Source of the DNA: Spirochaetia bacterium
GTDB lineage: Bacteria > Spirochaetota > Spirochaetia > SZUA-6 > Bin103
Length of the DNA stretch: 64,000 nucleotides
Reading direction: 5' to 3'
NCBI GenBank assembly: GCA_965203055.1
Contig: OZ241863.1
Coordinates: 3,008,001-3,072,000 of the forward strand
Shown here: positions 1,109-38,455 of the stretch, piece by piece
Numbering within the stretch: position 1 is the stretch's first letter
How the letters are laid out: each line of letters opens with the position of its first letter
Program-made: the position numbers and the translations under genes
Notes under the pieces: model-generated
Seen by the model: only the letters and a program-made list of their open reading frames with translations
Database searches by the model: none
Told to the model about the DNA's origin: nothing

Positions 1109-1978
1109 GTGGAGGCCGGCCTGGAGCGCCAGATTCGGTCGCTCGCCGAGCAGCACGAGAAGTTGATCGAGCGGCACGCCTACCTCAATCAGGTGGTCGC
1201 TGCGCTCAGCGCGATGCGCGGCAAGCTGCTGCGCCCGGCGCTGGTGCTGTTCAGCGGCCGCGCCGTTACGGGAGCGAGCGGGCCGCGGGGCGCGGATGGC
1301 GCGCGCAGCGCCGCCGGCCCCCCGCTCATCGCCCTCGCGGTGGCCGCCGAACTGGTGCACGCCGCCTCGTTGATTCACGACGACATCATCGATCGCGCCT
1401 TCGTCCGGCGCCACCACACCGCGCTCTACCGCGAATTCGGAACCGCCATCGCCGTCCTGGTGGGGGACGTGCTGTACGCGCAGTTCTTTACGTTGATTTC
1501 GGAGCTGCCGCTGCCTGCCGCGCAGCGCCTGCGGCTGGTGCGGTTGTTCTGCGCGGTCACCAAGACCATGAGCCAGGGCGAGATCTTCCAGCACGGCGCC
1601 AGGCGCTACGAGCTGGACCTTACCGTCGACGACTACCTGGCGATCATTCGCAGCAAGACCGCGGCGTTGATGTCCGCCTGTTGCGCGGCCGGCGCGCTGG
1701 TAGGCGGCGGCCGCGAGGCGCAGATCACCTCCGCCGGCGAGTTCGGTCTCCAGTTCGGACTCGTGTTCCAGTTGATCGACGACCAGATGGACCAGGACAC
1801 CCCGGCCGCCGGCAGTCTGGCCCCGGCGGCCCGCGCGCACGCCGCCCGCGCCCGCGCCGCCCTTGCCGCGCTGCCGCCGGGCGAGTCGCGCGCCGCCCTG
1901 GATGCCCTCACCGGCTTCGTGCTCGGCCAACGCGCCGCCGCCGAGGTTGAAGAGGTCGGTAAACTGGTGGCCCGGTAG
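1109..1978 (+). CDS. Polyprenyl diphosphate synthase family protein; frame is open back to ~986, true start may be CTG at 1007
   Basis: GKLLRP, ELVHAASLIHDDIID (FARM), KTAALM, FQLIDDQMD (SARM-like). Confidence 0.88.
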   Translation: MEAGLERQIRSLAEQHEKLIERHAYLNQVVAALSAMRGKLLRPALVLFSGRAVTGASGPRGADGARSAAGPPLIALAVAAELVHAASLIHDDIIDRAFVRRHHTALYREFGTAIAVLVGDVLYAQFFTLISELPLPAAQRLRLVRLFCAVTKTMSQGEIFQHGARRYELDLTVDDYLAIIRSKTAALMSACCAAGALVGGGREAQITSAGEFGLQFGLVFQLIDDQMDQDTPAAGSLAPAARAHAARARAALAALPPGESRAALDALTGFVLGQRAAAEVEEVGKLVAR

Positions 1979-2158
1979 CCGCCCCGAAATCGGTCGAGAG
2001 CAGCCGGCGGCCGTCCGGACGAAGCCGTGCGGCCTCCCGGCCCCGTCCTTGCGGCGCCCTGCGTCGGCGCTTCATTGATAGAATTCGGGTTACCGCCTAT
2101 ACTGCCGTGCTGCCGGCCTGTGACCGGTCCGGTAAGGACATTCCAAAGGAGCGTCTCA

Positions 2159-3424
2159 ATGAAGAAGCTGTTGCTCACACTCGTCGTGATGGTTGCCGCG
2201 GCAGGGTTCGCCGCCGCCGGCGCCGAGGGCGAAGGTTCCCAGGCGGAGGACGTGACCGTGACCATGTACAAGTGGGGTCTTCCGGCGGGCCAGGAAAACT
2301 GGAGCGAGTTGGAGGGGCTCATTACCGCGGCCACCGGGGTCGACGTAGAGCTGATTCAGGCGCCGACTTCGTTCACCGACTATCAGACCAAGGTCGCCAC
2401 CTTGTTGGCCTCCGGCGACACCAGCATCGATCTGTTCGATGTTGATGAGTACATCACCTACGGCAATATCCTGGGAGGGTTCTTCGAGCCGCTCAACGAC
2501 ATCTTCTCGCCGGAAGATCTCGCCGCCTATCCCAAGAACTACATGGACCAGATGGCGACCTACGAAGGCGACATCATCGGCGTGCCCCATTCCTTCAGTT
2601 GGTTCCCGATGTATCTGAACAAGAGGTTGCTCGATGAAGCCGGTCTGGCCATTCCCACAACCGGTGAGGACTACCTGGAGATGACCAAGGTTCTCACCAA
2701 GGATGACGTGTTCGGATTTGGCGACGGTTGGGCCAAGGGCTTCATCACCAACTTCCTCCAGTACATCATCTACGTGCACGGCGGTGACTACTTCGACTGG
2801 GACGATCAGGGCACCCGGGATGCGATCAAGCTGATGTACGACCTGATCAATACCTACGAAGTCGCGCCTCGGGCGATTCTCGCGGATGACTATGGCGCGC
2901 TGGGGCAAAAGCTGCTCGACGGCAAGTTCGCCTCCTCGATTACCTGGGACTGGATCGTCTCCGTAGCGGTAAGCCAGGGCAAGTACGGCTCCGAGCTCAT
3001 CGTCGCGCCGACCCCGAAATGGTCAGACGATCCGGACAGCGACATCACTCTCATGGGCGCTTGGCTCTACGTCCTGACCGCCGCTTCGGAGCGCACGGAC
3101 GCGGCCAAGAAGGTCCTCGGATACATGCTTTCGGAGGAAGCTGCCACCGCTCACTCGAGGATGACCGGCAACGCCGTGCCGCTCAGAAGCGATTCGCTGG
3201 AGGAGCCGATCTTCAACGATCCGGCCGTATGGCCCGCTTCTTCGATCCTCAAGGACATGAACGCCCGCGACAAGCTGTGGGCGCGGCCGATGGCCGGCCG
3301 AATGAGCGACATAATGGACAGCGTCGAGAATCCCCTCAACGAGTACTTCAACAACAACATCGACCTGGAGGAGGCGGTCAAGAGGGCCAACAGAGAGCTC
3401 GACAGACTGTTGGGCAGCCGCTAG
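2159..3424 (+). CDS. Carbohydrate ABC transporter substrate-binding protein (family 1)
   Basis: AAGGAG RBS, signal peptide MKKLLLTLVVMVAAAGFA, SBP_bac_1-like motifs, followed by two CUT1 permeases. Confidence 0.9.
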   Translation: MKKLLLTLVVMVAAAGFAAAGAEGEGSQAEDVTVTMYKWGLPAGQENWSELEGLITAATGVDVELIQAPTSFTDYQTKVATLLASGDTSIDLFDVDEYITYGNILGGFFEPLNDIFSPEDLAAYPKNYMDQMATYEGDIIGVPHSFSWFPMYLNKRLLDEAGLAIPTTGEDYLEMTKVLTKDDVFGFGDGWAKGFITNFLQYIIYVHGGDYFDWDDQGTRDAIKLMYDLINTYEVAPRAILADDYGALGQKLLDGKFASSITWDWIVSVAVSQGKYGSELIVAPTPKWSDDPDSDITLMGAWLYVLTAASERTDAAKKVLGYMLSEEAATAHSRMTGNAVPLRSDSLEEPIFNDPAVWPASSILKDMNARDKLWARPMAGRMSDIMDSVENPLNEYFNNNIDLEEAVKRANRELDRLLGSR

Positions 3425-6045: not shown

Positions 6046-7376
6046 GACCTGTCGCGTGCGCGGCGCTGATCGCCGCGGTCGCAATCGCCGCTCAGGGGGA
6101 CACCCACGACCGTGATGAGCAGCTCGTCCACTCCCTCACGGTATTCAACGGAAGCGGCTATTCCTCGACCTTCAGCCCCGAGTCCTCCGACACCATCTAT
6201 CTGCTCGCGGACATCGACAACTTCCTTGCGCTCCGAAAGACGTTCGTGCACTACCGTCCGGCGGACGACGCGCTGAAGATCGACACCGCGCTCCTCGACG
6301 CGACCGTGGAAGGCGTTCTCGAGATCTCGAGAGACGCCGGCGATTCGGAATATCTCCTGATGGAGGATTACACCTACTACAAGCTGCGGAGTAACGGCGC
6401 AGCCGACTGGCGCGCCGCTACCGGGCCTGAGGCTCACCTCGTCTACCTCGACTATACGGAACAGCTCCGCAGGTATCGGGAAGGAATAGATGACTACCGG
6501 CTCGATCGCGCCACCTACGACTACATGGTCAACGAGCTGGAAAGACGAATCGGGGAACAACGACAGACCGGCGGCGACATCGCCAGGCTGGAAGAAGTTC
6601 TACGGGGTCTTGCCGCTCCGGCCAGGCCCCGGTTTCCCGATGAGTACGCGGCCCCTCCTGTTCGCGTCGACCGCGCATTCGTAGTGAATCTCCCGGCCGG
6701 CAGCTACCGGACGCGACTCGTCAGCCGCGACGGGAGAATACTGGAAGGATCGGAAAAGACGGTCGTGGCGTTTGGCCGGCTTGGGGAGCCGACAGTCGGC
6801 TACGAGGTAATCCCGGGGGATAAGTGGAACCGTCCCGTTGAGTCGAGATCAAGCGATTCGGTCATCTATATCGATGGATCGAGCGATCTCTTTCTGATAG
6901 CGTACCACCAGCACGAGTACACCGATCTCTTCTATGAGAAGCTGGTCAGGAACGACGCCAGGGGGAGTCCCGGATTGAGACGGCATGTTTCTTTTCAAGT
7001 CGTCCGCGACGTCCGACTGGCGGTTCTGGATCGAGGCGGACCCGTCACCACGATCGAGGCGCTTCCCTACTTCGTGGATCAGGAGCGGACCGGCTCCTAC
7101 GGATACCGGATCGTCCCGTTCGATGCCGGCGGCGCGCATCTCAATCGCAAACCAGGTTTCGAAGCGTTTCACGTCGAGCAGGATCGTTACGGCACGCGCA
7201 TTCGGGTCGCCCTTGTCGATAGCCGGGGAGGCATCATCGATACCTCGATGCGGCGTATTCGACTGCTGGACGGGTCCCCATCGGCCGGCGCCCTGGTCCC
7301 TCTTGCCTTCCTGCCGTTGGCCGTCGGCGTCGGGGTGGGGATCGTTCGACTGAAGATCACCTCGCGCAAACCTTAG
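6042..7376 (+). CDS. Hypothetical exported protein with central coiled coil and C-terminal TM anchor
   Basis: Signal peptide, C-terminal LVPLAFLPLAVGVGVGIVRLK; GTGA overlap with upstream gene. Confidence 0.65.
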   Translation: MRPVACAALIAAVAIAAQGDTHDRDEQLVHSLTVFNGSGYSSTFSPESSDTIYLLADIDNFLALRKTFVHYRPADDALKIDTALLDATVEGVLEISRDAGDSEYLLMEDYTYYKLRSNGAADWRAATGPEAHLVYLDYTEQLRRYREGIDDYRLDRATYDYMVNELERRIGEQRQTGGDIARLEEVLRGLAAPARPRFPDEYAAPPVRVDRAFVVNLPAGSYRTRLVSRDGRILEGSEKTVVAFGRLGEPTVGYEVIPGDKWNRPVESRSSDSVIYIDGSSDLFLIAYHQHEYTDLFYEKLVRNDARGSPGLRRHVSFQVVRDVRLAVLDRGGPVTTIEALPYFVDQERTGSYGYRIVPFDAGGAHLNRKPGFEAFHVEQDRYGTRIRVALVDSRGGIIDTSMRRIRLLDGSPSAGALVPLAFLPLAVGVGVGIVRLKITSRKP

Positions 7377-7798
7377 CGGAGCAGTTCTTCGCCGCTGAAG
7401 AAGCAGCCGATCTCGGCGGCGGCGTTCCGGTCCGAGTCGGAACCGTGACAGCAGTTGCGCTCGATCGATTCGCCGAACCGGCGCCGGATCGTGCCCGCGG
7501 CCGCCTCGGCGGGGTTGGTGGCGCCCATGGCGCCCCGCCAGGCGGCGACCGCGTCCGGCCCCTCCAGGACCAGGGCGACGGTGGTGCCGGAGGTCATGAA
7601 CGCCACCAGGGACGCGAAGAAGGGGCGCTCGCGGTGCACGGCGTAGAACGCCTCGGCCTGCGCGCGGTTGAGATTGACGCTCTTGACCGCGGCGATCGAC
7701 AGCCCGGCGTCCAGCGCCGCGTCGATGATCTTGCCGGTCAGGCGGCGCGCGAAGGCGTCGGGTTTGATCAGCGCCAGGGTTCTTGATACATTTGCCAC
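7373..7798 (-). CDS. ndk: Nucleoside diphosphate kinase
   Basis: RTLALIKPDA, MGATNP, NCCHGSDS active-site motif. Confidence 0.97.
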   Translation of the reverse strand: MANVSRTLALIKPDAFARRLTGKIIDAALDAGLSIAAVKSVNLNRAQAEAFYAVHRERPFFASLVAFMTSGTTVALVLEGPDAVAAWRGAMGATNPAEAAAGTIRRRFGESIERNCCHGSDSDRNAAAEIGCFFSGEELLR

Positions 7799-7856
7799 GC
7801 CGGTGGTATAGCACGGCCTTCACCCGTCGATCAACGAACGCCGCAGTCAACCATTT

Positions 7857-7904
7857 CAGACCATTTGGTAGGAGTGCGCGAGCGGAGTCCTACATCCTTG
7901 TAGC
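7857..7904 (+). promoter_or_regulatory. Tandem putative enhancer sites (CAGAC-N6-GTAGG, CCTAC-N6-GTAGC) upstream of glnA
   Basis: Two imperfect palindromes 32 bp apart, mirrored upstream of amtB. Confidence 0.65.
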
Positions 7905-7945
7905 TCTCGCGGCGGAACCGCCGGGCAGAAGGCGCGCTTTCGGCA

Positions 7946-7960
7946 TGGCATGGATCTTGC
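7946..7960 (+). promoter_or_regulatory. Sigma54 (-24/-12) promoter of glnA
   Basis: TGGCATGGATCTTGC = TGGCA-N6-TTGC with exact GG-N10-GC spacing. Confidence 0.88.
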
Positions 7961-8010
7961 CTGCATTGTTCGACGCGGTACCCGCGTAAGCGATTCATGA
8001 GGAGGTAACA

Positions 8011-9432
8011 GTGAATCTCAAGACACCTGGCGACGTGATGAAGCTGATCGCCGAGGAAGCGGTCGAGGTGATCGACCTGCGCTTCATGGACTTTCCCGGT
8101 CTGTGGCAGCACTTCTCGATTCCGGCGCGCGAGCTCTCGGAGGACGACTTCGAGGCTGGTCTCGGCTTCGATGGTTCGAGCATCCGCGGCTGGCAGTCGA
8201 TCAACGAGTCCGACATGCTGGTCAAGCCGATCCCCGAGACCGGCTTCATCGACCCGTTCCTGGCCCGCAAGACGCTGGTCCTGATCTGCAACATTTCCGA
8301 TCCGATCACCGGCGAGGACTACACCCGCGACCCGCGCAACATCGCCCGCAAGGCGGAGGCCTACCTGCGCTCCTCGGGCGTGGCGGACATCGCCTACTTC
8401 GGCCCGGAGGCCGAGTTCTTCATCTTCGACGACGTGCGCTTCGACCAGAACGAGCACGAGGGGTACTACCACATCGACTCCGAAGAGGGGCGCTGGAACT
8501 CGGGCCGCGTGGAAAACCCCAACCTCGGCTACAAGCCGCGCTACAAGGAGGGCTACTTCCCGGTACCGCCCACCGACAGCCTGCAGGATCTGCGCAGCGA
8601 GATGATGATGACCCTGGAGAGCATCGGGGTCCTCATCGAGGCGCAGCATCACGAGGTGGCCACCGCCGGTCAGGGCGAGATCGACATGCGCTTCGCGCCA
8701 CTCGTGACCATGGCCGACAACATGCTCAAGTACAAGTACGTGGTCAAGAACACCGCCCGCCGCTACAACAAGACCGCTACCTTCATGCCCAAGCCGCTGC
8801 TCGACGACAACGGCAGCGGGATGCACACCCACATGTCGTTCTGGAAGGGCGGCAGCAACCTGTTCGCCGGCGACGGCTACGCCGGGATGTCGGAGATGGC
8901 GCTGCATGCCATCGGCGGCCTGCTGGCGCACGCGCCGGCGATCATCGCCTTCACCAATCCGACCACCAACAGCTTCAAGCGGCTGGTGCCCGGCTTCGAG
9001 GCGCCGGTGAATCTGGCCTACTCGCGCCGCAACCGCAGCGCCGCGGTGCGGCTGCCGATGTACTCCACCTCGCCCAAGGCCAAGCGCATCGAGTTCCGCT
9101 GTCCGGACGCCTCCTCCAATCCCTATCTGGGGTTCGCGGCCATGCTGATGGCGGCGGTGGACGGCATCGCCAACAAGACCCATCCCGGCGAGCCGCTGGA
9201 TCGCGATCTCTACGACCTGCCGCCGGAGGAGTTGGCCCGGGTGCCGACTACGCCGGGGTCGTTGCGCGACGCGCTGGACGCCCTCAGCAAGGACCACGAT
9301 TTTCTCCTCAAGGGCGACGTGTTCACCGAAGACGTGCTGGAGACCTGGATCGAGTACAAGATGGAGAACGAAGTGACCGCGCTCGACCTGCGGCCGCATC
9401 CGTGGGAGTTCGCCCTCTACTACGACATCTGA
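8011..9432 (+). CDS. glnA: Glutamine synthetase type I-beta
   Basis: [34 protein letters not shown], adenylylation site DLYDLP; GAGGAGG RBS. Confidence 0.98.
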
Positions 9433-9548
9433 GGCAGCATCTGAGACAGCGCAGCGCCGCCGCCGGGTGAGGCCGCGCGGCGCGTTGCGCGTGGCGCGCG
9501 GCGCGCAGGTGACGCAGCCGGGCAGTACCGGTAGCCTGTGGCGTACCG

Positions 9549-12500
9549 ATGAAGCCGCCGCGCGACCTGCTCGTCAGCCAGTTGGAGGGAGTCGACGCTG
9601 CCTTCATCGACGCCCACCTGGCGCGGCTGGGAGACGACTACTACGCGGAGTTCTCGCTGCCGGAGGTGGTGGTCCAGCTCCGCGAGCTCAGCCGGCTCGA
9701 CGCCGCGCGCCCGCTGGCGGTGATGGCCGTCGCCGCGCCCCCGGACGCGCTGCATTGCACCATCCTTGCCGCCGACCACCCGGGGTTGTTTTCGCTGATC
9801 ACCGGGGTGCTCGGCGCCAGCGGATTCGCCATCGAGAGCGGGGCGGCGTATACCTATGGCGCTGCCCCGCCGGCGCCCGCGGAAGCGTCCCGGGCGGGTC
9901 TCCGCCAACTCTCCCGGCGGTCCGCCGCCGGGCATGGCGCGGCGGTCCGCCGCCGGCGGGCGCGCGCCGGACCGCCGCAACCGCGCGTGCGCCGGCTCAT
10001 CGTCGACCGCTTCCGCGGCCGCCGCGTCTCCGCGGAGGCGCGCGCCTTGAGCCTGGAAGCGTGGCGCCAGCAGCTTGAACGGCGCCTGCTGGAAGGGGTC
10101 CGCGACCTGGAGCGCGGCGCGCCGGAGGCGGCGCGGCGGCGCGTGAGCGAGCTGGTGGCGGAGACCATCCGGCGCCACTGGCCGACGCCGCCCACCCTCT
10201 ATCCGGTACAGATCGACATCGGCAATCTCGCGCCCGCGGCCGGCGGCGCGGTTACCCGCATGCGCATCGTCTCGCAGGACACGCCGCTGTTTCTGTACAG
10301 CCTCGGCGCCGCGCTGGCGCTGCGCGAGGTGTCGATCCAGCGCGTGCGGATCGCCACCAGCGGCGGGCGGGTGGAGGACCTCGTAGACGTAGTGGACCGC
10401 GCCGGCGCGCCGATCGCCGACCCCACGCTGCTCGATCAGATCAAGCTGTCGGTGCTGCTCACCAAGCAGTTCGCCTACTTCGTGGGCATGGCGCCCGACC
10501 CCTATGCCGCGCTGCTGCGCTTCGAGCAGCTCACCGAGCAGATCCTCGGGCTGCCGGAAGAGGGGCGCCTGCTCGACCTGCTGGCCGACCCCCGCATCAT
10601 GCAGGAGCTGGCGCTGCTGCTCGGCACCAGCGACTACCTGTGGGAGGATTTCATCCGCCAGCAGTTCGAGACGCTGCTGCCGATGTTGGAACAGGAGCAG
10701 GAGCACAGCTTCAGCGACGCCGCCACCGTGGCGCGACGGCTGCGCCGGACGCTGGCGGCGGCGCCGGACGCCGCCGCCAAGGTGACGGCGCTCAACGCGT
10801 TCAAGGACCGCGAGGCGTTCCTCATCGACCTGGAGCACGTCCTCAACCGCCACTCTAGCGTGCCGCAGCTCGCCGCGCGTCTGACGCGGCTGGCCGAGTG
10901 CGTGGTCAGCGCCGCGCTGGAGCTGGCCGCGGCGGCGCTGCGCCCGCAGTTCGGCATCCCGCGTACTCTGGGCGGCATCGATGCCCGCCTGGCGGTGGTG
11001 GGGCTCGGCAAGTTCGGCGGCGGCGCCCTGGGGTACGCCTCCGACATCGAGCTGATGTTCGTGTACGGCGACCAGGGTACCACCACCGGCCCGCAGCGGG
11101 TCGAAAACGGAGAATACTTCGAGCGGCTGGCGCAGGAGACCGTCAGCCGCATCAGCGCCAAGCGTGCCGGCATCTTCGAGGTCGATCTGCGCCTGCGGCC
11201 CTACGGCGCCGCGGGGCCGCGCGCGGTGAGCCTGGAGAGCTTCGCCCGCTACTACGGCCCCGGAGGCGAAGCGCTGGCCTACGAGCGGTTGGCGCTCATC
11301 CGGCTGCGCGCCGTGGCGGGCGACCGTGAGCTGGGCGCGCGCCTGGAGCGCCTGCGCGACGAACTGGTCTACCAGACCGGCGCCATACCGCTGGAGGAGG
11401 TGCACCGGATGCGCCGGCGTCAGGTAGCCGAATACGATGCCGACAGCCGGCTGAATGCCAAGTTCAGCCCCGGCACCCTGGTGGACGTGGAGTACGCGGT
11501 GCAGATGCTGCAAGTCCGCTACGGCGCGGCCCGGCCCGCGCTGCGCACCTCCGGCGTGCACCAGGCCCTCGACGAACTGGCGCGCGCCGGCATCCTGGCG
11601 CAGCTCGAAGCGGAGCAGGTGGGGGAATCCTACGACTTCTACCGCCGCCTGATAAACGCGCTGCGCATCCTGCGCGGCTCGGCGCGCGACCTCTACCTGC
11701 CGGCCGCGGGGGCGGTGGAGTACGGGCACCTGGCGCGGCGCATGGGCTATCGGGGGGATTCGGCGCTGAGCCCGGCGCAGCGGCTGCACCTGGAGCTGGA
11801 AACCCGCCGCGCCGGGGTGCGGCGCTTCATAGACTCCCATCTCGGCCACGGTTCCCTGGGTTCGGGCAGCATTACCGGCATCGCCGACCTGGTGTTGAGC
11901 CCGGCCGCGGCCGGCGCAGAGCCCGGCGCCGCGCCCGGCGCCGCGCCCGGCGCGGAGGCCGGCGCAGAGCCCGGCGCGGACCGCGGCGCCGAGCGGGTGT
12001 TGCGCCGCTTGGGATTCGCCCAACCGGAACCGGCGGCGCGCAACCTCGCGCGCCTCGCCCGGCGCGCGCCGGACCGCATGGAGTTCGCCCGCCTGGCGGT
12101 ACTGGCCGGCGACGAGCTGGCGCGGCAGTCGGACCCGGATCGGGCGCTCAACAACTGGGAACGCTACGTCGCCGCGCTCGGCGCGCCGGGACACCACTTT
12201 CGCACCTTGCTGCGCCAGCCGACGCGGCTCGAGTTGTTGATCCGCATCTTCGCCACCAGTCAGTTTCTGGCCGACGCCCTGGTGCGCAACCCGGAGCTGT
12301 TCGACTGGGTGACCGAGCCGGAGCGGCTGCGCCGCCGGCGGCGGCTGCGGGAGGTGGTGCGGGAGTTGGATGAGCGCCCTGCCTGGCCGCCTCGACTGCG
12401 CACGTTGCGGCGCCGCGAACTGCTGCGCATCGCCATCCGGGACTACTGCCTGCAGGCCCCGGTCACCGACGTGATGGGCGAGCTGTCGGTGGTCGCCGAG

Positions 12501-13442
12501 GCGTTCATCGACGCCGCGGTGCGCAAGCTGGCGGCGCGGCATGCGGAGCTGCCGCCGCGGGTGTGCATCCTGGCGTTCGGCAAGCTGGGGGCGGAGGAGC
12601 TCAACTACAGCTCGGACCTCGACCTGCTGGCGCTGTACGACGACCGCGGCCTGCCCGCCGAGCGGAGCGCGGCGCTGGCGCAGCAGGTCACCGCGCTGGC
12701 CCGCTCCCTGGGCCGGACGCTGGCGGCTCACAGCGGCGAGATGGCCAGCTACCGGGTAGACTGGCGCCTGCGCCCCTACGGCAGTTCCGGGGAACTGGCG
12801 CACTCGTTCCGGTCGCTGGCCGCCTACTACGCCGGGCCGGCCAACGACTGGGAGGTGCAGGCCCTGCTGCGCCTGCGGCCGGTCGGGGGGAACCGCGCGC
12901 TCGGCGACGCCCTGCTGCGGCAGGCGCGCGCCGCGTTCGCCCGCCTGGGGGACGATCCGGCGCAACGCGGCGCGCGCGCCTTCGCCACCATCGAGCGCCT
13001 GCGCAATCTGGCGCTGGCCGGGCAGGTCAAGCGCCGGCTCAATCAGGGCCGCGACATCAAGTCGGGAGCCGGCGGCATCCGCGACCTCGAGTTCCTGGTC
13101 CAGGGGCTGCAGCTCCAGCACCTGCTGCAGCATCCGCAGCTTGCGTGCGGCAACACCGTGCTGGCGCTCGAACGGCTGCAGCAGGCCGGGGTGCTCAGTG
13201 CGGGCAGCGCGGCCCAACTCCGGGAAGACTACCTGTTTCTGCGCCGTCTGGAGCACTTCCTGCAGGTGTTCGAGGACCGTCAGGTACACGCCCTGCCCGG
13301 CTCCGACGCCGCCCTGCGGGCGTTGGCGCGGCGCATGCTGGGGGCCGGCGCCACGGTAGCGGCGTTCAACGAACTGGTGGCGGCCGTCACCACGCGGGTC
13401 CGCGCCACCTATCTCCGGTTCGTGACCCTCTCCGGTTCGTGA
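9549..13442 (+). CDS. glnE: Glutamine synthetase adenylyltransferase (GlnE) with two N-terminal GlnD-like ACT domains
   Basis: Two NT domains (GLGKFGGGALGYASDIE; AFGKLGAEELNYSSDLD), VDLRLRPYG/VDWRLRPYG, DIKSGAGGIRDLEF; ACT motifs DHPGLFSLITGVL and DTPLFLYSLGAAL. Confidence 0.88.
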   Translation: MKPPRDLLVSQLEGVDAAFIDAHLARLGDDYYAEFSLPEVVVQLRELSRLDAARPLAVMAVAAPPDALHCTILAADHPGLFSLITGVLGASGFAIESGAAYTYGAAPPAPAEASRAGLRQLSRRSAAGHGAAVRRRRARAGPPQPRVRRLIVDRFRGRRVSAEARALSLEAWRQQLERRLLEGVRDLERGAPEAARRRVSELVAETIRRHWPTPPTLYPVQIDIGNLAPAAGGAVTRMRIVSQDTPLFLYSLGAALALREVSIQRVRIATSGGRVEDLVDVVDRAGAPIADPTLLDQIKLSVLLTKQFAYFVGMAPDPYAALLRFEQLTEQILGLPEEGRLLDLLADPRIMQELALLLGTSDYLWEDFIRQQFETLLPMLEQEQEHSFSDAATVARRLRRTLAAAPDAAAKVTALNAFKDREAFLIDLEHVLNRHSSVPQLAARLTRLAECVVSAALELAAAALRPQFGIPRTLGGIDARLAVVGLGKFGGGALGYASDIELMFVYGDQGTTTGPQRVENGEYFERLAQETVSRISAKRAGIFEVDLRLRPYGAAGPRAVSLESFARYYGPGGEALAYERLALIRLRAVAGDRELGARLERLRDELVYQTGAIPLEEVHRMRRRQVAEYDADSRLNAKFSPGTLVDVEYAVQMLQVRYGAARPALRTSGVHQALDELARAGILAQLEAEQVGESYDFYRRLINALRILRGSARDLYLPAAGAVEYGHLARRMGYRGDSALSPAQRLHLELETRRAGVRRFIDSHLGHGSLGSGSITGIADLVLSPAAAGAEPGAAPGAAPGAEAGAEPGADRGAERVLRRLGFAQPEPAARNLARLARRAPDRMEFARLAVLAGDELARQSDPDRALNNWERYVAALGAPGHHFRTLLRQPTRLELLIRIFATSQFLADALVRNPELFDWVTEPERLRRRRRLREVVRELDERPAWPPRLRTLRRRELLRIAIRDYCLQAPVTDVMGELSVVAEAFIDAAVRKLAARHAELPPRVCILAFGKLGAEELNYSSDLDLLALYDDRGLPAERSAALAQQVTALARSLGRTLAAHSGEMASYRVDWRLRPYGSSGELAHSFRSLAAYYAGPANDWEVQALLRLRPVGGNRALGDALLRQARAAFARLGDDPAQRGARAFATIERLRNLALAGQVKRRLNQGRDIKSGAGGIRDLEFLVQGLQLQHLLQHPQLACGNTVLALERLQQAGVLSAGSAAQLREDYLFLRRLEHFLQVFEDRQVHALPGSDAALRALARRMLGAGATVAAFNELVAAVTTRVRATYLRFVTLSGS

Positions 13443-13507
13443 CCGCGCCGGTCGGACCGGCCGTTCGCGCGTCCCGATCCGACCGGCTCCCTCGTGCCGC
13501 GCCCGGG

Positions 13508-13849
13508 TCAGCCGATGGCGACCATACCCACTTCGCCGGAGCGGATGCGGATGCACTGATTGAGTTCGACCACGAAGATCTTGCCGTCGCCGATCTCGCC
13601 GGTGCGCGCCCCGCGCACGATGGCATCGATGGTGCGCTCCAGGAACTCGTCGTTCACCGCGATTTCGATACGCACCTTCTTGAGCAGGTTTACCTCGATC
13701 TGGACCCCGCGGTAGGTCTCGGTGTAGCCCATCTGTTGGCCGCAGCCCAAGGCGTTGGTAACCGACATCTTGCCAACCTCCTCCTTGAACAGCTCCTGCT
13801 TGACGTCGTTCAACTTGTGCGGCTGAACGTAGGCGATGATAAGTTTCAT
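13508..13849 (-). CDS. glnK: PII nitrogen regulatory protein (GlnK/GlnB), Ile at position 51
   Basis: 113 aa, T-loop [32 protein letters not shown]; directly downstream of amtB. Confidence 0.93.
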
Positions 13850-13863
13850 GTTGCTTCCTCCAG

Positions 13864-15210
13864 CTAACGCGAGGTGTACACCTCGAAGTCGGTGTACGCC
13901 TCGGTGCCGTGCTCTTCGATGTCCAGGCCGCGCAGCTCCTCGTCCCGGCTGACCCGCAGACCGATGAAGGCCTTGATCGCCGCAAACAATAGCAGAGAAG
14001 CAACGAAGGTCCAGACGAACACTGCCGCCACGCCGACGATCTGCACGCCCAACTGGCCGAAACCGCCGCCGAAGAACAGGCCGTTGACTCCGCCGAACTG
14101 TTCGTGCGCGAACAGGCCGACCGCAATGGTCCCCCAGGCGCCGACCACGCCGTGCGCGGAGACCGCGCCCACCGGATCGTCCACCTTCAGCACCCGGTCG
14201 ATGAACTGCGCCGACAGCACCACCAGCACGCCGCCCAGGAAGCCGACGATCACCGCGCTGCCCGGCGCCAGATTGGCGCAGCCGGCGGTAATCGCGACCA
14301 GCCCGGCGATGGCGCCGTTCAGGGCGAAGGTGGGGTCGGGCTTGCCGGAGATGATCCAGGCCACGATCAGCGCGCCGACCACGCCCGCGGCCGCAGCCAG
14401 GTTGGTGGTGACCGCGATGGCGGCGATGGAGAGGTCGGTGCCGGCCACCGTGCTGCCGGCGTTGAAGCCGAACCAGCCGAACCACAACAGGAATACGCCG
14501 AGCGCCGCCAGCGGCACGTTGTGCCCCTGGATCGCGTTCACCAGCACCGTGCCGCGCGCGCCGTTGGCGCCGTTCCTGATGTACTTGCCTTCGCGCGCTC
14601 CCAGGACGATGGCGCCGGCCAGTCCGGCCCAGCCGCCGACGGAATGCACCACGGTGGAGCCGGCGAAGTCCATCACCCCGTTCGCGCCCAGGTTGCTGAG
14701 CCAGCCCCCGCCCCAGATCCAGTGGCCCACCACCGGATAGATCAGCGCGCTGATGAACACCGAGTAGACCAGATAGGCTTTGAACTGGGTGCGTTCGGCT
14801 ACCGCGCCGGACACGATGGTGGCGGCCGTGGCGGCAAACATCACCTGGAACACCCAGAACGTGAAGTCGGAAAATGCTTCGTCCACCACCGCGCCGGCCA
14901 GGAAGAACTTGCTGGTGCCGAACAGGCCCGCGGCGTCGGCGCCAAACATGATGCCGAAGCCGATCGCCCAGAACGCCAGCGTACCGATGGAGAAGTCCAT
15001 CAGATTCTTCATCATGATGTTGGCGGCGTTCTTGGCGCGGGTGAATCCGGTTTCGAGCATCGCGAAGCCGGCCTGCATCAGGAACACGAGCACCGCGGCC
15101 ATCAGGGTCCACACGGTGTCGATTGCCACCGCATTCGAGTTCGAGTCGGCGAAGCCGTAGACGGCGCCGAACACCAGCAGCGCTCCCGCTGCGATCAGGA
15201 AACGTCGCAT
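13864..15210 (-). CDS. amtB: Ammonium transporter
   Basis: [56 protein letters not shown]. Confidence 0.97.
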
Positions 15211-15255
15211 TATCCAGGTCCTCCTTGACTGGGAATTGCGTTCTTTCCACCGCAA

Positions 15256-15270
15256 GCAAGGACCATGCCA
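15256..15270 (-). promoter_or_regulatory. Sigma54 promoter of amtB-glnK
   Basis: Minus strand TGGCATGGTCCTTGC, 13/15 identical to the glnA promoter, exact spacing. Confidence 0.88.
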
Positions 15271-15323
15271 GGGAAGTGAGAAGGGGCTGACGGAGGCGGC
15301 CCGGCGGAATCGGCGCGGAGAAT

Positions 15324-15370
15324 CCTACCTGAACGTAGGGCGCCAGGCCGGATACCTACGTTGACGTCAG
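15324..15370 (-). promoter_or_regulatory. Tandem putative enhancer sites upstream of amtB (CTGAC-N6-GTAGG, CCTAC-N6-GTAGG)
   Basis: Perfect palindrome arms CCTAC/GTAGG at 15324-15339, second site at 15355-15370. Confidence 0.68.
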
Positions 15371-15382
15371 TTTTTGGGCGCG

Positions 15383-16939
<1,557 letters not shown>

Positions 16940-16942
16940 ATG

Positions 16943-16956
16943 CTACCGGAAGGTAG
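16943..16956. promoter_or_regulatory. CTAC-N6-GTAG site immediately upstream of the activator start codon
   Basis: CTAC-CGGAAG-GTAG in the divergent intergenic region. Confidence 0.55.
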
Positions 16957-17010
16957 TCTGATTCAACCGCATTGACAAACCGCCCGCCGATCGGCCAACA
17001 ACTCACGGTA

Positions 17011-18312
17011 ATGAATCCCATTGCCGCGGACCTCAACCATACTCTCGCCGACACCGTGCTCCCGCGCCTGCTGTCCGACTTCGGACGGCGCCTCTACTTT
17101 CCGCGCGGCGTCGTTGCCCAGACCGCCGAGGCGGCGCAGCACGCCCATCGCTTCAACGCCACGGTGGGCATCGCCACGGACGGCGTCGAACCGCTGTTCC
17201 TCGACGGAATCCGGGCCCTGGTGCCGGAACTGGCGCCCGAGGAAATCTTCGCCTACGCCCCGACCGCCGGGCTGCCGGCGCTGCGCGACGCCTGGCTGCA
17301 GGAGATGAAGCGGAAGAACCCGACCTTGCAGGAGCCGGTGTCGCGCCCGCTGGTGACCAGCGGCCTGACCCACGGCATCACCATCGCCGCCGATCTGCTG
17401 GTGGAGCGCGGCGACCGCGTCGTGGTCCCCGATCTGTTCTGGGGCAACTACCGCCTGGTATTCGAGGAGCGCCGCCAGGCGCGGCTGGAGACGGTGCCCT
17501 TCTTCGACGCCGCCGGCGGCCTGAACGTGGCGGCGCTGGCCGCGGCGCTGGCGCGCGCGCCCGCCGGCGGCAAGGTGGTGCTGCTCCTCAACTTCCCCAA
17601 CAACCCCACCGGCTACACCCCGACCGAAGCCGAGATGGAGGCGCTCGCCGCCGCCTTGCGGGCCACCGCCGAGCGCGGGGTGGCGCTGGCCGTGATCTGC
17701 GACGACGCCTACTTCGGCCTGTTCTACGAAGCCGCGAGCTGCCACGAGTCGCTGTTCGCGCGCCTCGCCGGGGCGCACGAGCGGCTGCTGGCGGTAAAGG
17801 TGGATGGCGCCACCAAGGAGAACTACGTGTGGGGCTTCCGGCTCGGGTTTCTCACGCTCGCCGCGCGCGGTTTGACCGCCGCCCACTTTACCGCCCTGGA
17901 GCAGAAGCTGATGGGCGCGGTGCGCTCGTCGGTGTCCAGTTCCGGCATGTTGACCCAGAGCCTGCTGCTGCGCGGCATGCGGTCGGGCAGCTATCAGGCG
18001 CAGCGCGAGGCCAACCTGGCGGCAATCGCCGCGCGCTACCGCCGGGTGCGGGAGCTCCTCGCCGCGCGCGCCGGCGCCGCCGAGCCGCTGCAGCCGCTGC
18101 CGTTCAACTCCGGGTACTTCCTCACCCTGCGCGTGGCGCACGGCGCGGCCGAGACGCTGCGCCGGGAGCTGCTGCGGCGCCGCGGCGTGGGCACCATTTC
18201 GGTGGGCGACGACTACCTGCGGGTGGCGTTCTCCACCGTGGCGTACGACGACCTGGAGGCGCTGTTCGCGGAGCTCTACGCCGCCGCGCGCGAGCTCGCG
18301 GCGAGCCGCTGA
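17011..18312 (+). CDS. Class I/II PLP-dependent aminotransferase
   Basis: LNFPNNPTGY, DDAYFG, DGATKE..VWGFRLG PLP-lysine region. Confidence 0.9.
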   Translation: MNPIAADLNHTLADTVLPRLLSDFGRRLYFPRGVVAQTAEAAQHAHRFNATVGIATDGVEPLFLDGIRALVPELAPEEIFAYAPTAGLPALRDAWLQEMKRKNPTLQEPVSRPLVTSGLTHGITIAADLLVERGDRVVVPDLFWGNYRLVFEERRQARLETVPFFDAAGGLNVAALAAALARAPAGGKVVLLLNFPNNPTGYTPTEAEMEALAAALRATAERGVALAVICDDAYFGLFYEAASCHESLFARLAGAHERLLAVKVDGATKENYVWGFRLGFLTLAARGLTAAHFTALEQKLMGAVRSSVSSSGMLTQSLLLRGMRSGSYQAQREANLAAIAARYRRVRELLAARAGAAEPLQPLPFNSGYFLTLRVAHGAAETLRRELLRRRGVGTISVGDDYLRVAFSTVAYDDLEALFAELYAAARELAASR

Positions 18313-29015: not shown

Positions 29016-31733
29016 CTACTCCGCGGCGCGGGATACGTCCAGCCGCACCAGTTCCAGCAGCTCGTCGTCGGGCAGTTCGGTCAGGTTGATCTCCCCGCCG
29101 CCGGCCCCGGCGCCGGGCAGCAGGTCGGCCGCCAACTGCCGCTTGTCGCGGATCAGGCTATCGATCCGCTCCTCCACCGTGCCGCGGGTAATGAACTTGT
29201 GCACCAGGACGTTGCGCCGCTGGCCGATGCGGAAGGCGCGGTCGGTGGCCTGGTCTTCCACCGCCGGATTCCACCAGCGGTCGAAGTGGATCACGTGCGA
29301 CGCCGCGGTCAGGTTCAGACCGGTGCCGCCGGCCTTCAGCGACAGCACCAGAAACGGCGGGCCGTCGTCGCGCTGGAACCGCTCCACCACGGCGCGGCGC
29401 TGCTTGACGCTCGTGCCGCCGTGCAGCGCCAGCCCGGCGGCGCGGAACAGAGTCGCCAGATAGTCGGCGAGCGGATCGATGATCTCCCGATATTGGGTGA
29501 AGATCAGCGCCTTCTCCTGGCGGTCCGCGAGTTCCTCGCAGATTTCCGCCAGGCGCTGGAACTTGCCGCTTGCCGCCGGGGCGTACTCGCCGTCGCCGGA
29601 GAGTTGGCTGGGGTGATTGCACACCTGCTTCAGGCGCAGCAGCGACGCCAGCACCAGACCGCGCCGCGCCATGCGGTCGCCCGACTCGGCGGATTCCAGG
29701 GCGCGCTGCAGGGCCTGCACCACCTGCTGGTAGAGTCGGACCTGCGCCGGCGAGAGCTGGCAGTAGCGGGCGGTTTCGGTCTTCTCCGGCAGGTCGGCGA
29801 TGATGCTGCGGTCGGTCTTGAGCCGGCGCAGGAGGTAGGGGCTCACCAGCCGGCGCAACGGCGCGAACGGTTGCTGCGCCCGCGCCTGCAGGGTCTTGAC
29901 GAAGGCGCGGAACACGCTTTGCGAGCCGAGCAGTCCGGGATTGAGGAAGTCGAACAGCGCCCACAGGTCGCCGAGCCGGTTTTCGACCGGCGTACCGGTC
30001 AGGGCCACGCGGGCGTCCGCGGGCAGCGCTCGGGCGGCGCGGCTCTGCCGGGTGGCCGGGTTTCTGATCGCCTGCGCCTCGTCCAGGATCACCAGCCGCC
30101 AGCGGATCTCCGCCAGCCAACTCTGGCGTACCAACATGGCGTAGGTGGTAACGACCAGGTCGGCGGCGGCCAGATGCTTCCGCGGCGCCGCGGCGATCTC
30201 CGCCAGGATCTGGCGGTCGTTCTCGGCCGGATGGAGGAAGCAGAGCCGCAGGGAGGGCGCGAACCGCTCCGCTTCGGCGCGCCAGTTGCCCAGCAGCGAC
30301 GCCGGCACGACCAGCAGGGCGGGAGCGCGCCGCCGGGCTCCGTTCGCGGGCCGGTCGCACAGCAGCAGGGCCAGCACCTGGATCGTCTTGCCGAGCCCCA
30401 TGTCGTCGGCCAGACAGGCGCCGAACCCCAGCCGGGTCAAAAAGTGCAACCAGGCCAGCCCGGCGCGTTGATAGGGCCGCAGCGTTCCCTGCAGGGCGGC
30501 GCCCAGTTCCGCTTCGCGCCGCTCCGAGCCGCCCGGCTGGCGCAGCCCGGCCAGCAGCTCGCGCATTGCGGCGCCGGCTTCGATCCGCACCCACGGCCGG
30601 TCGGCTTCGGTCTGTTCCTCCTGCTGCAGGTCGGCGGAGGCGCCGGCCAGCAGTCGCATCCCTTCGATGAAGGAGAGGCCGTCGCCGCCCGCCTGCTCCT
30701 GCAATGCTTCCCAGTGGGAGATCGCCTGTTGCAACCGTTCGCGGTCCACCTCCACCCACTGGTTGCGCAGCTGAACCAGGTTGCCCGCGCCGTCCCGCAA
30801 CTCCTGCAGTTCAGCCGCCGACAGCGCGCGGTCGCCCAGGGCTACCTCGACCTTGAAGTCTAGCATCGCCGCGGCGTCCACCCGCGCCGGGGTCTCCGTG
30901 CCGATCGTCACCGCCACCCGCGGCCGGGGCCGTTTGCGCCACCAGTTCGGCACCCGTACCGACAAGCCGCACCGCTCCAGATCGGGCACGCTCTGCAGGA
31001 AGCGGTAGGCCTGCTCGGGCGGCCACGTCAGCGCGCCATAGAGGTTGCCCGAGCCCGCCAGTTCCCGCACCCAGGAGCATGCCTTGGCAGCTTCCTCCAC
31101 CGGCGACAGCAGCTTGAGCAGCGCGGCCCGGTCGTCCGCTCCGGCGTACTGTTGCAGGGCGTTGCGCAGCGGCGCGTGCTTCAACCGGCCGCCGGCGCCG
31201 AAGCCGGTGGAGTAGGTGGCCAGAAACGCGAACGGGCGCTCCTCATCGGCGCGGTTCTCGGCCAGGTGAAAGCAGACCCGGCCCACCTGATGCCAGCGCG
31301 GCGCCCGCCGGCTCAGCAGCTCCTCCAGGCCGCCGGCCTCCGCCGCGGCGGCGCGGACCCACTGGCCGAGTTGCTCCCACAGCCGCTGCAGGAGCTCCGG
31401 CGACAGGTACTCTCCGCCCTCCATCGGCGGGGCGGTGAGCATCCAGGCCGCGCACTGGGCGGCGGTCGGCGGCGCCGCCAGGGGACATGCGGAATCCGGC
31501 CCCGCGGCCGCCGGCAGGTGGCACAAGGCGGTGAGATACTGCTCGGCGAATTGCTGCCAGTAGCGCAGCGCCGGGAACTCCTGCGCCGGCAGCCGTTCGG
31601 CCGCCAGGGTGAACAGCGCGCTGCGCCAGTCGCTCCGCATCGCCTCCGGGACGCCGCCCAGTTCGGCCGGCGCCGGCGCGTCCGCGGCCGGCTCCCAGCG
31701 CAACTGGCCGGCCGGCGTCAGCCGCACGCTCAT
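29016..31733 (-). CDS. SNF2-family DEAD/DEAH helicase
   Basis: LRPYQ, LADDMGLGKT, LDEAQ, TGTPVEN, LSLKAGGTGLNL, DRWWNPAVEDQATDRAFRIGQ. Confidence 0.95.
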   Translation of the reverse strand: MSVRLTPAGQLRWEPAADAPAPAELGGVPEAMRSDWRSALFTLAAERLPAQEFPALRYWQQFAEQYLTALCHLPAAAGPDSACPLAAPPTAAQCAAWMLTAPPMEGGEYLSPELLQRLWEQLGQWVRAAAAEAGGLEELLSRRAPRWHQVGRVCFHLAENRADEERPFAFLATYSTGFGAGGRLKHAPLRNALQQYAGADDRAALLKLLSPVEEAAKACSWVRELAGSGNLYGALTWPPEQAYRFLQSVPDLERCGLSVRVPNWWRKRPRPRVAVTIGTETPARVDAAAMLDFKVEVALGDRALSAAELQELRDGAGNLVQLRNQWVEVDRERLQQAISHWEALQEQAGGDGLSFIEGMRLLAGASADLQQEEQTEADRPWVRIEAGAAMRELLAGLRQPGGSERREAELGAALQGTLRPYQRAGLAWLHFLTRLGFGACLADDMGLGKTIQVLALLLCDRPANGARRRAPALLVVPASLLGNWRAEAERFAPSLRLCFLHPAENDRQILAEIAAAPRKHLAAADLVVTTYAMLVRQSWLAEIRWRLVILDEAQAIRNPATRQSRAARALPADARVALTGTPVENRLGDLWALFDFLNPGLLGSQSVFRAFVKTLQARAQQPFAPLRRLVSPYLLRRLKTDRSIIADLPEKTETARYCQLSPAQVRLYQQVVQALQRALESAESGDRMARRGLVLASLLRLKQVCNHPSQLSGDGEYAPAASGKFQRLAEICEELADRQEKALIFTQYREIIDPLADYLATLFRAAGLALHGGTSVKQRRAVVERFQRDDGPPFLVLSLKAGGTGLNLTAASHVIHFDRWWNPAVEDQATDRAFRIGQRRNVLVHKFITRGTVEERIDSLIRDKRQLAADLLPGAGAGGGEINLTELPDDELLELVRLDVSRAAE

Positions 31734-31793
31734 CGCGCGCTCGCCGGCTGCGTTGGGCCGCCCCTCACCGCCCCGGCGGCAGGCAACGGAAGA

Positions 31794-33611: not shown

Positions 33612-33794
33612 CACTGCTGTGTGCAAGAAATCCTCCGTCGGGACCAGTAACGGCCAGCGCGGCCAGCGCCGGCAGCGGCAATTGCCGGCCGCGCACCTAT
33701 CTTGAAGAAAATGCACCAGCCATGCAACTATGGAGAAACCATGAGCCACGTCAAAGAGCTCAAGCAACACAGCCGACAGGAAGCGCAGGCAGGG

Positions 33795-34928
33795 ATGTCG
33801 GACAACGGCGCATCGGCAGGTCCGCGACCGCGGCTGAAGAGCGTCAAGGTCAAGGGGTTCCGGTCCATCAAGGAGATGGATTTGGAGATGCGGCCGCTCA
33901 ACGTCTGCATCGGCGCCAACGGCGCAGGAAAGAGCAACCTCATCGCGTTCTTCAAGCTGATAAACGAAATGATGGGCGGACGACTCCAACAATACTTCGG
34001 CACGACCGGACGGGCCACCGCCAATCTGTACTTCGGACCCCGCATAACTCCGCAAATGGAGGTGGAGCTGGACTTCGAGGTCGATAGAGGAACCAACGCG
34101 TACCGCATGAGGCTCGTTCACGCGGCCGATGACTCGGTGATCTTCGCCGATGAGTCGGTCTCCTTTCACCAGGAAGGCCATGATCTGCCTCAGCTAATGT
34201 CGTTGGGCGCCGGGCATCAGGAGACGCGTATCAGAGAGGACTCGATATACGATCCTCTCCCGAATACCCTGAGGCACCTATTGAGTCACTGCCGCGTGTA
34301 CCACTTCCACGATACGTCGCAGACTGCGCGCGTTCGCCAGTACTGTTACGTTGAGGACAGTAAGTGGCTCATGCCCGATGCAGCGAATCTTGCCGCCGTT
34401 CTCCATCGGCTGAAGACCGAGAACGAGCTGGTCTACCGGCAAATCGTGAGGAACGTGAAACAGGTAGCGCCGTTCTTCGTGGACTTCGATCTCCAGCCTT
34501 CCGGGCGCAACAAGACCGACATCATTCTCAACTGGAGACATAGAGATTCCGATCTGGTATTTGGGCCGCATCAGCTATCCGATGGCACCTTGCGCGCAAT
34601 CTGCCTGATCGCGCTGCTACGGCAGCCACACGAGGACTTGCCGTACCTGATCGTGGTTGACGAGCCGGAGCTCGGTTTGCACCCGCATGCGCTCGACATG
34701 ATCGCTTCGTTTTTTCAAGCCGCGAGCGAGCACGCCCAAGTGCTCATCAGCACGCAGTCCAGCGCGTTCGTCGACGCCTTCGATCCCGAGGACATCGTGG
34801 TGGTCGAACGAGACTGCGAAGCCACGACATTCACGCGACCCGACGCCGAGAAACTCGGCGCGTGGCTGGAAGACTACTCGCTCGGCGAAGTATGGGAAAA
34901 GAACGTCATAGGCGGCGGACCGCACTGA
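33795..34928 (+). CDS. ABC-type AAA ATPase (AAA_21/AAA_15); start may be 33741
   Basis: GFRSI, IGANGAGKSN, LSDGTLR signature, DEPELGLHP, STQS. Confidence 0.9.
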   Translation: MSDNGASAGPRPRLKSVKVKGFRSIKEMDLEMRPLNVCIGANGAGKSNLIAFFKLINEMMGGRLQQYFGTTGRATANLYFGPRITPQMEVELDFEVDRGTNAYRMRLVHAADDSVIFADESVSFHQEGHDLPQLMSLGAGHQETRIREDSIYDPLPNTLRHLLSHCRVYHFHDTSQTARVRQYCYVEDSKWLMPDAANLAAVLHRLKTENELVYRQIVRNVKQVAPFFVDFDLQPSGRNKTDIILNWRHRDSDLVFGPHQLSDGTLRAICLIALLRQPHEDLPYLIVVDEPELGLHPHALDMIASFFQAASEHAQVLISTQSSAFVDAFDPEDIVVVERDCEATTFTRPDAEKLGAWLEDYSLGEVWEKNVIGGGPH

Positions 34929-35614: not shown

Positions 35615-35617
35615 CGG

Positions 35618-38443: not shown

Positions 38444-38455
38444 TACCCCGGTTCC

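Follow-up and report, generated by a model that had tools for sequence, protein, structure and literature searches.

The DNA analysed here, henceforth the window, is a stretch of 64,000 nucleotides (nt) from a Spirochaetia bacterium (GenBank assembly GCA_965203055.1, contig OZ241863.1, positions 3,008,001 to 3,072,000 of the forward strand), in which genes of nitrogen assimilation lie beside the gene of a sigma54-dependent activator. The type I glutamine synthetase gene, glnA (8011..9432, + strand), has a GTG start preceded by AGGAGG at 8000-8005, and its product matches PF00120 and PF03951 and scores 652.7 bits against TIGR00653, for which the cut-off is 429. On the - strand, the ammonium transporter gene amtB (13864..15210; PF00909, E 4.5e-126) begins at ATG 15210, preceded by AAGGAGG, and is followed downstream by glnK (13508..13849), which encodes a PII protein of 113 amino acids (aa) recognised from its open reading frame (ORF) translation and the NCBIfam PII models. 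Adjacent to amtB, and also on the - strand, is the activator gene (15383..16939; 518 aa), the product of which combines GAF, Sigma54_activat, AAA_lid_14 and HTH_8 domains. The element of interest is a dyad, CTAC-N6-GTAG, that occurs upstream of glnA, upstream of amtB-glnK and at the ATG of the activator gene itself. Very probably it is this element that the adjacent GAF-AAA+ activator binds, and on the comparative sequence evidence set out below it would define a small nitrogen-assimilation regulon.

Both target operons have a sigma54 -24/-12 box close to their first gene. That of glnA, TGGCATGGATCTTGC (TGGCAT-N5-TTGC), is found at 7946-7960 (+), 51 nt upstream of the GTG at 8011, and that of amtB-glnK, TGGCATGGTCCTTGC, at 15270-15256 (-), 46 nt upstream of the amtB ATG at 15210. 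The two are the only matches to TGGCAY-N5-TTGC in the window, where 0.24 would be expected and two of 100 shuffles reach this number. Upstream of each box is a pair of dyads, scored here with the weight matrix described below. At glnA, the distal dyad CAGACCATTTGGTAGG (7857-7872; matrix span 7855..7874; 15.3 bits) has GAC for TAC in its left half and an intact GTAGG in its right half, and the proximal dyad CCTACATCCTTGTAGC (7889-7904; matrix span 7887..7906; 14.0 bits) is an exact CTAC-N6-GTAG with its centre 49.5 base pairs (bp) upstream of the T of TGGCAT. At amtB, the proximal dyad CCTACGTTCAGGTAGG (15339-15324, - strand; matrix span 15322..15341; 16.3 bits) is an exact CCTAC-N6-GTAGG centred 61.5 bp upstream of the corresponding T, and the distal dyad CTGACGTCAACGTAGG (15370-15355, - strand; matrix span 15353..15372; 7.98 bits), which starts 12 nt past the activator stop codon, is degenerate and reads GAC-N6-GTA on the - strand. 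Positions 15361-15368 of the latter form a perfect 8-bp palindrome, TGACGTCA, which is probably incidental. The start-to-start offsets within the pairs are 32 bp (glnA) and 31 bp (amtB), and the gaps from proximal dyad to -24 box are 41 and 53 bp, respectively.

These two boxes and four dyads, with their offsets and gaps, were read exactly as an earlier note on this DNA had described them. Its list of sites was incomplete, however, in that a third exact copy at 16943-16956, abutting the activator ATG, had been missed. Altogether the window holds three exact CTAC-N6-GTAG dyads, one upstream of glnA, one upstream of amtB-glnK and one at the activator ATG, against 0.13 expected, and none of 100 shuffles reaches three. 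Moreover, when the window is scanned with the matrix derived solely from other loci, just four matches of at least 8 bits appear, at 7855, 7887, 15322 and 16940. The same note had held that neither the NifA nor the NtrC motif fits, and this is borne out: TGT-N10-ACA occurs seven times in the window (4.0 expected) with no copy in 7799-8010 or 15211-15382, and the NtrC-type core GCAC-N7-GTGC, allowing at most one mismatch, occurs 40 times in the window with no copy in the glnA or amtB upstream region. An Rfam scan of 7000-17500 gave no family at gathering score.

It might be supposed that the likeness of the two upstream regions is due to chance, or to recent duplication of a promoter cassette. 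The sigma54 boxes are, after all, identical at 13 of their 15 positions, and the distal sites taken alone are not above chance, since CCTAC-N6-GTAGG with at most two mismatches is found 21 times against 15.3 expected, a count that 13 of 100 shuffles reach. Such an origin is nonetheless extremely improbable given the shuffle result for the exact dyads, the dissimilarity of the sequence between the elements, and the conservation of the elements themselves in distant phyla. In the closest relatives both distal sites hold their position (alignments A1 and A2), and in the alignments with the related loci L001, L003, L006 and L007 both sites are fixed in place but the DNA between them has diverged. 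At the distal position L003, L006 and L007 have a more complete dyad, and degeneracy is confined to the window and L001; at the distal glnA position L001 carries a similar site (alignment A2).

The wider comparison draws on a scan of species-representative genomes that returned 576 relatives of the activator, from which the best 80 loci (53-93% identity) were kept. They come from Spirochaetia, Desulfomonilaceae, Desulfarculaceae, Syntrophales, Planctomycetota/Brocadiia, Hydrogenedentota, Latescibacter, Verrucomicrobiota and Acidobacteriota. The closest, L001 (93% identity), has the full gene order of the window. At least one of amtB, glnK and glnA is present in 47 of the 80 loci; among the 59 with at least 2 kb of sequence downstream of the activator gene, one of the three follows it on the same strand within 6 kb in 38 and within 1.5 kb in 35.

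Every dyad consisting of a 4-mer, a spacer of 0 to 12 nt and the reverse complement of the 4-mer was enumerated, without prior choice of pattern, in both flanks of the activator gene and in a coding control. CTAC-N6-GTAG ranks first on both flanks, with 21 of 76 loci carrying it in the 250 nt that follow the activator stop and 23 of 80 in the same length of sequence ahead of its start. The next ranks are shifted registers of the same element (TACA-N4-TGTA, TACC-N4-GGTA and CCTA-N8-TAGG), and in the coding control unrelated dyads take the top places. Over the whole 1.21 Mb of these loci the dyad occurs 71 times, as compared with 1-36 times for 11 other dyads of the same composition. A symmetric weight matrix refined on the 80 loci, with the window excluded, gives the motif ATCCTAC(A/C)-N4-(G/T)GTAGGAT, in which the core TAC-N6-GTA is nearly invariant and in which the flanking positions are conserved although the seed pattern left them unconstrained. 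Matches of at least 14 bits number 146 in the 1.21 Mb of loci and two in 0.64 Mb of shuffled loci.

The placement of these sites is that of enhancers. The loci contain 144 sigma54-like matches; a site is found 30-220 nt upstream of 62 of them and, as a control, downstream of five, and site-bearing promoters of this kind are present in 48 of the 80 loci. The spacing between neighbours is 30-32 bp in 33 of 35 pairs, the glnA pair of the window included. From proximal site to promoter, the preferred distances are near 84, 95 and 106 bp and recur with a period of about 10.5-11 bp; those of the window (49.5 and 61.5 bp) are shorter than most, yet fall on the same periodic series, in keeping with the earlier remark that roughly one turn of the helix separates the two gaps in length.

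The genes behind these promoters are, for the most part, those of ammonium assimilation. The first ORF could be assigned for 60 of the 62 site-bearing promoters (the other two had none), and it encodes AmtB in 25, glutamine synthetase in 22 and PII in one, such that one of these three is the first gene in 48 of 60. The remainder comprise a Gcw_chp outer-membrane barrel ahead of amtB (five), an asparagine synthase (one), an Exo_endo_phos protein (one) and proteins without a Pfam family (five). The Gcw_chp/MipA-like barrel gene is the first behind a site-bearing sigma54 promoter in L004, L008, L011, L017 and L044; it is followed by amtB in L004, L008, L017 and L044, and L011 has no amtB match. 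The barrel may be a porin of the regulon.

The assignment of the dyad to the activator follows from its co-occurrence with the activator gene across phyla, from its presence on both sides of that gene and from the enhancer geometry. A different arrangement can be envisaged, in which the adjacent activator has its sites elsewhere and the dyads belong to another factor, for instance a nitrogen repressor or a global regulator. Many dimeric factors bind palindromes of about this size, and the site next to the activator ATG resembles the operator of a repressor. Such a factor would, however, have to account for a dyad that tracks the activator gene on both its sides across phyla, and for pairs that stand at enhancer distance upstream, and hardly ever downstream, of sigma54 promoters. 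The core is also common to the site of the homologous activator AnfA. This alternative is accordingly judged quite improbable, and the activator remains the preferred occupant of the dyads.

The activator itself has the make-up of a bacterial enhancer-binding protein, with a GAFTGA-bearing AAA+ domain, a C-terminal Fis-type helix-turn-helix (HTH) and -24/-12 boxes at its putative targets. The GAF domain spans residues 31-173 and the AAA+ domain residues 206-373 (PF00158, E 5.9e-73; the translation shows the GAFTGA loop and, as Walker A motif, GETGTGK), followed by the lid and by the HTH (HTH_8) at 471-509. There is no Response_reg domain, its place being taken by GAF, and the NtrC models remain below their cut-offs. 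Residues 1-200 contain a single cysteine, at position 130, with none near the N-terminus. Across the family the recognition-helix region, [ST]ER.MGLRV, is nearly invariant (alignment A4). The helix has diverged in four loci, of which L075, L076 and L079, with GYK variants, have no strong site and L074 has sites; these are too few to count.

What this protein should be called is less straightforward. Its relatives run into thousands, some 68-70% identical across phyla, and are often labelled 'nif-specific NifA' by their sources. Indeed, the best curated family for the window protein is NifA (TIGR01817), with a score of 528.5 bits where the cut-off is 528.85, and the best match of solved structure is also a NifA (9qq6, E 2.7e-108), with matches to the GAF domain alone including NifA 8jrc and Aquifex Nlh1/Nlh2. 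The protein could thus be a true nif-specific NifA with its main targets in nitrogenase genes elsewhere in the genome, the sites at glnA and amtB being secondary, and a homologue at 53% identity (L077) is in fact linked to nifHDKE with the same dyads. No AnfA or VnfA model is among the best 25 of the 29 NCBIfam families matched by the activator. Taken as a test of equivalence, however, the TIGR01817 comparison fails: the score lies just under the cut-off and the alignment covers model positions 3-438 of 534 only, leaving the C-terminal, DNA-binding part of the model unmatched. Furthermore, the targets lack TGT-N10-ACA, and the protein lacks the cysteine-rich interdomain linker, a conserved linker cysteine motif being described for many NifA proteins in PMC7294313. 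The 64-kb window contains no ntrB, ntrC or nif gene and no second sigma54 activator, and the activator gene directly precedes amtB, glnK or glnA in the 38 of 59 loci given above. That the protein is a NifA in the strict sense therefore appears unlikely, and an activator of assimilation genes is preferred, although additional nif targets may exist elsewhere in the genome. The NifA labels given to members of this family are unreliable in any case, since the cut-off splits the family arbitrarily: L060 (567 bits) and L074 (563 bits), which lie beside amtB/glnA, are above it, and the nif-linked L077 (481 bits) is below.

The dyad at the activator's own gene differs from the others in being single. 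It lies at 16940..16959 (exact core 16943-16956; 15.5 bits), with its core 3 nt before the ATG at 16939 and within the 71-bp gap to a divergently transcribed gene, and it abuts the ATG in the window and L001 alike. A site of at least 11 bits is present within 200 nt before the activator start in 54 of the 73 loci with enough upstream sequence, where it is usually single and centred 30-65 nt before the start. It is probably an autoregulatory operator: there is no room, and no sigma54 box, for an own-gene enhancer, such that an operator with negative autoregulation is the simplest reading of the sequence. A pair of hexamers found by eye, TTGTCA-N17-TACCTT, had been considered as a sigma70 promoter and was dropped, as it fails the criteria of the scan. 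The divergent gene (17011..18312, + strand) encodes a pyridoxal-phosphate aminotransferase of PRK08637-like type (NCBIfam NF006388, 517 bits) and is syntenic only in L001, L003, L006 and L007; as an uncertain member of the regulon, it may be controlled from the same operator.

Taken together, these observations favour a NifA-like GAF-AAA+ activator, with recognition of the AnfA type, that binds tandem enhancers and thereby drives sigma54-dependent transcription of glnA and amtB-glnK, a reading to which we assign a probability of roughly 0.78. The dyad is a real control element. The proposal of the earlier note that it is the motif of the adjacent activator, and that it marks a nitrogen regulon, gains support from the co-occurrence across phyla in enhancer geometry, and motif discovery on the related loci brought the same dyad to the top de novo on both flanks of the activator gene. 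Independence from NtrBC, also proposed in that note, is a conjecture that reaches beyond the 64 kb analysed.

Several points weigh against this reading. Binding of the dyads by the activator is predicted from sequence, a circumstance that also leaves some room for another factor. The matrix was seeded from exact dyads, so that the conservation of its core is partly built in, and a site of at least 11 bits is missing in eight of the 80 loci. The distal amtB site of the window, at its 7.98 bits, is weak. As regards the periodic spacing, the Rayleigh R of 0.44-0.56 comes from loci that are related and not independent, and the p-values attached to it are overstated. The C-terminal 90 aa of the activator are matched best by the AtoC model, at 40.3 bits, and weakly by NifA, at 19.5 bits, and the likeness to AnfA and VnfA is one of site and of domain order. 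At the activator gene, the upstream site is missing in 19 of the 73 loci, a scan of 16880-17080 for a sigma70 promoter or terminator found none, and the direction of autoregulation is a guess. The leads to the signal read by the GAF domain come by analogy with the NifA and AnfA papers alone.

A mechanism consistent with the arrangement can nevertheless be outlined. The HTH of the activator would recognise ATCCTAC(A/C)-N4-(G/T)GTAGGAT, with its AnfA/VnfA-type core TAC-N6-GTA, and dimers would sit on two dyads 30-32 bp apart, that is, three helical turns, and hence on one face of the double helix. In the window they would stand, as judged by dyad centre, about 50-93 bp upstream of the -24 box. 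On release of the AAA+ domain by GAF, the bound dimers would assemble into the active oligomer, which would then loop to the sigma54 holoenzyme and, at the expense of ATP, open the promoters of glnA and amtB-glnK. The single dyad over the translation start and promoter region of the activator gene would most likely confer negative autoregulation. Each of these steps, from dimer binding through oligomerisation and looping to own-gene repression and nitrogen sensing by GAF, is predicted from sequence. As for the signal, the GAF domain of Azotobacter NifA binds 2-oxoglutarate. That of AnfA is implicated in inhibition by deuridylylated PII, according to PMC12093980. By analogy, the GAF domain here probably reads a nitrogen signal, either 2-oxoglutarate or PII in the form of GlnK.

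The GlnK protein is relevant in this regard. Tyr51 of PII is the site of uridylylation, as stated in PMC12093980. In the T-loop of the window GlnK this position is held by isoleucine, opposite the Tyr51 of two PII proteins of canonical appearance (alignment A5). Tyrosine is absent from this position in 15 of 17 aligned amtB-linked GlnK proteins (alignment A5). The absence of this tyrosine suggests signalling that would proceed without modification of the GlnD type. Between glnA and glnK lies glnE (9549-13442, + strand; 1297 aa). The N-terminal extension of GlnE, of about 317 aa, has no Pfam match and is kept in L001, L003, L006, L007 and L076.

One member of the family, L077, a verrucomicrobial metagenome-assembled genome (10001-18817), has a different setting: the activator gene is followed by draT and draG, then by two CTAC-N6-GTAG dyads and then by nifH, nifD, nifK and nifE. 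The two dyads are 31 bp apart, and a TGGCAC box with a poor -12 element stands between them and nifH. The same type of dyad would thus appear to serve a Mo-nitrogenase cluster in L077, and in another member, L080, genes resembling those of a molybdate transporter follow the activator gene. In other words, the nif linkage of the one and the gene content of the other suggest that the family spans control of assimilation and of nitrogenase with one type of site.

A broader proposal can be built on this, which is offered tentatively and at somewhat less than even odds. The subfamily that goes by the name of NifA may be the main activator of ammonium assimilation, a one-component replacement for NtrBC, in many mostly anaerobic phyla outside the Proteobacteria, namely Spirochaetota, Planctomycetota, Hydrogenedentota, several classes of Thermodesulfobacteriota, and Latescibacterota. 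It would sense nitrogen through its GAF domain and a GlnK not open to uridylylation at position 51. The dyad, because it also precedes nifH in the verrucomicrobial member, would mark an old link between the regulators of assimilation and of nitrogenase. Nitrogen control is poorly mapped outside the Proteobacteria, Firmicutes, Actinobacteria and Cyanobacteria, and here one dyad and one activator family tie together glnA, amtB-glnK and the activator gene across at least eight phylum-level groups. The outcome is a testable regulon model, with a weight matrix by which uncultured genomes can be annotated. A systematic problem of naming is exposed as well, the NifA cut-off passing members linked to amtB/glnA and failing one linked to nif.

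Elsewhere in the window, the region 29016-41354 resembles a defence island, with a ZorD/DpdE-like SNF2 helicase, a DUF6242 protein and HEC-01B (DUF4276), together with a PDC-S09 nucleotidyltransferase and a type III restriction enzyme accompanied by its methyltransferase. Genes of the SoFic-like and PDC-S01 types come later, at 50.6-53.5 kb. At 59613-60979 there is a tandem array of 114-bp units (11.7 copies, 76% match), which may encode a repetitive protein, the unit being equal to 38 codons.

Of the known systems with which the locus may be compared, enteric NtrC at glnAp2 is the functional analogue. There, tandem enhancer sites about 32 bp apart are located some 100-140 bp upstream of the sigma54 promoter of glnA. 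NtrC senses through a receiver domain that NtrB phosphorylates, and it represses its own operon from sites overlapping a sigma70 promoter. The window activator has GAF where NtrC has the receiver domain, and the motifs differ: NtrC sites are of the form TGCACC-N5-GGTGCA, and GCAC-N7-GTGC is absent from both upstream regions of the window. NifA is nearest by curated family and by solved structure (TIGR01817 and 9qq6) and has the same order of domains; it differs in that the DNA-binding domain of the window protein is not NifA-like, that its targets carry no TGT-N10-ACA and that there are no nif genes nearby.

A literature search found no paper on this activator family or on CTAC-N6-GTAG at glnA or amtB. 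What can be cited is related work. Limited conservation of NtrBC in Planctomycetota, Thermodesulfobacteriota and Spirochaetota is described in PMC12316311, and PMC2607301 and PMC2995071 deal with other NifA-like genes or with the absence of NifA in Geobacter. In Leptospira, EbpA is a GAF-containing sigma54 activator that binds upstream of amtB and is needed for amtB transcription (PMC12655853); it differs in having two GAF domains and in being FhlA-like, and no defined binding motif for it was seen in that review.

A further parallel is DVU1949 of the Desulfovibrionales, predicted to be an autoregulated single-component sigma54 activator of nitrogen-assimilation operons (Kazakov et al. 2015, PMC4641369), with predicted targets that include DVU1231-1233, DVU1258, DVU3392 and others, classed under nitrogen metabolism/transport (Table 1 of the same paper). 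Its 16-bp AT-spaced palindrome, approximately TTTACA-N4-TGTAAA, overlaps the TAC(A)-N4-(T)GTA of the window, and some of its sites are 32 bp apart; the window, too, has a site at the activator's own gene and palindromes upstream of amtB and glnA. Against this, the invariant positions are CA..TG there and TAC..GTA here, the outer bases are TT/AA there and CC/GG here, and the DVU1949 gene is in an iorAB-linked operon, not beside amtB. Moreover, that regulon is purely computational and DVU1949 is at most a possible orthologue of the window protein; no Desulfovibrionales genome is among the best 80 loci. Similarity of the DNA-binding domains, as judged by eye from supplementary file 2 of PMC4641369, is not used as evidence, since the labels of that file, or their parsing, may be shifted. 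Among the strings listed there, that of DVU0569 comes nearest to the DNA-binding domain of the window protein, and the motif predicted for DVU0569, TGG-N16-CCA, is unrelated. A further locus, L081 (pDV1 of N. vulgaris Hildenborough), has an activator at 1477-3021, the C-terminal domain of which is identical to the string listed for chromosomal DVU1949.

It is with AnfA and VnfA, from Rhodobacter capsulatus and Azotobacter vinelandii, that the site itself finds its counterpart. In R. capsulatus, promoter mutations and gel shifts gave the AnfA consensus TAC-N6-GTA. Two sites, one distal and one proximal, lie in the interval from anfA to the RpoN site of anfH, and expression is complete only when both are present. 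The GTA half is strictly conserved and some species can do without TAC; for VnfA the site GTAC-N6-GTAC has been proposed (all from PMC7294313). The earlier description of the window dyad as 'non-canonical' was therefore an overstatement: its core is the published AnfA consensus, and 'AnfA/VnfA-type' is the better term for an element that is not unprecedented. The likeness extends to the architecture of the protein, a GAF-AAA+-HTH sigma54 activator, and to the placing of paired TAC-N6-GTA dyads in the interval that separates the activator gene from the sigma54 promoter of the operon that follows, and the tolerated loss of the TAC half is mirrored by the GAC-N6-GTA distal sites of the window. 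The differences are in the sensor and in the targets. AnfA and VnfA carry a cysteine motif in GAF (PMC7294313), whereas the GAF region of the window protein has the one cysteine at 130, and their targets are the genes of Fe- or V-nitrogenase, whereas those of the window are glnA and amtB. An experimentally defined type of site is in this way extended from nitrogenase to assimilation genes, which helps to trace how the regulators of the two diverged.

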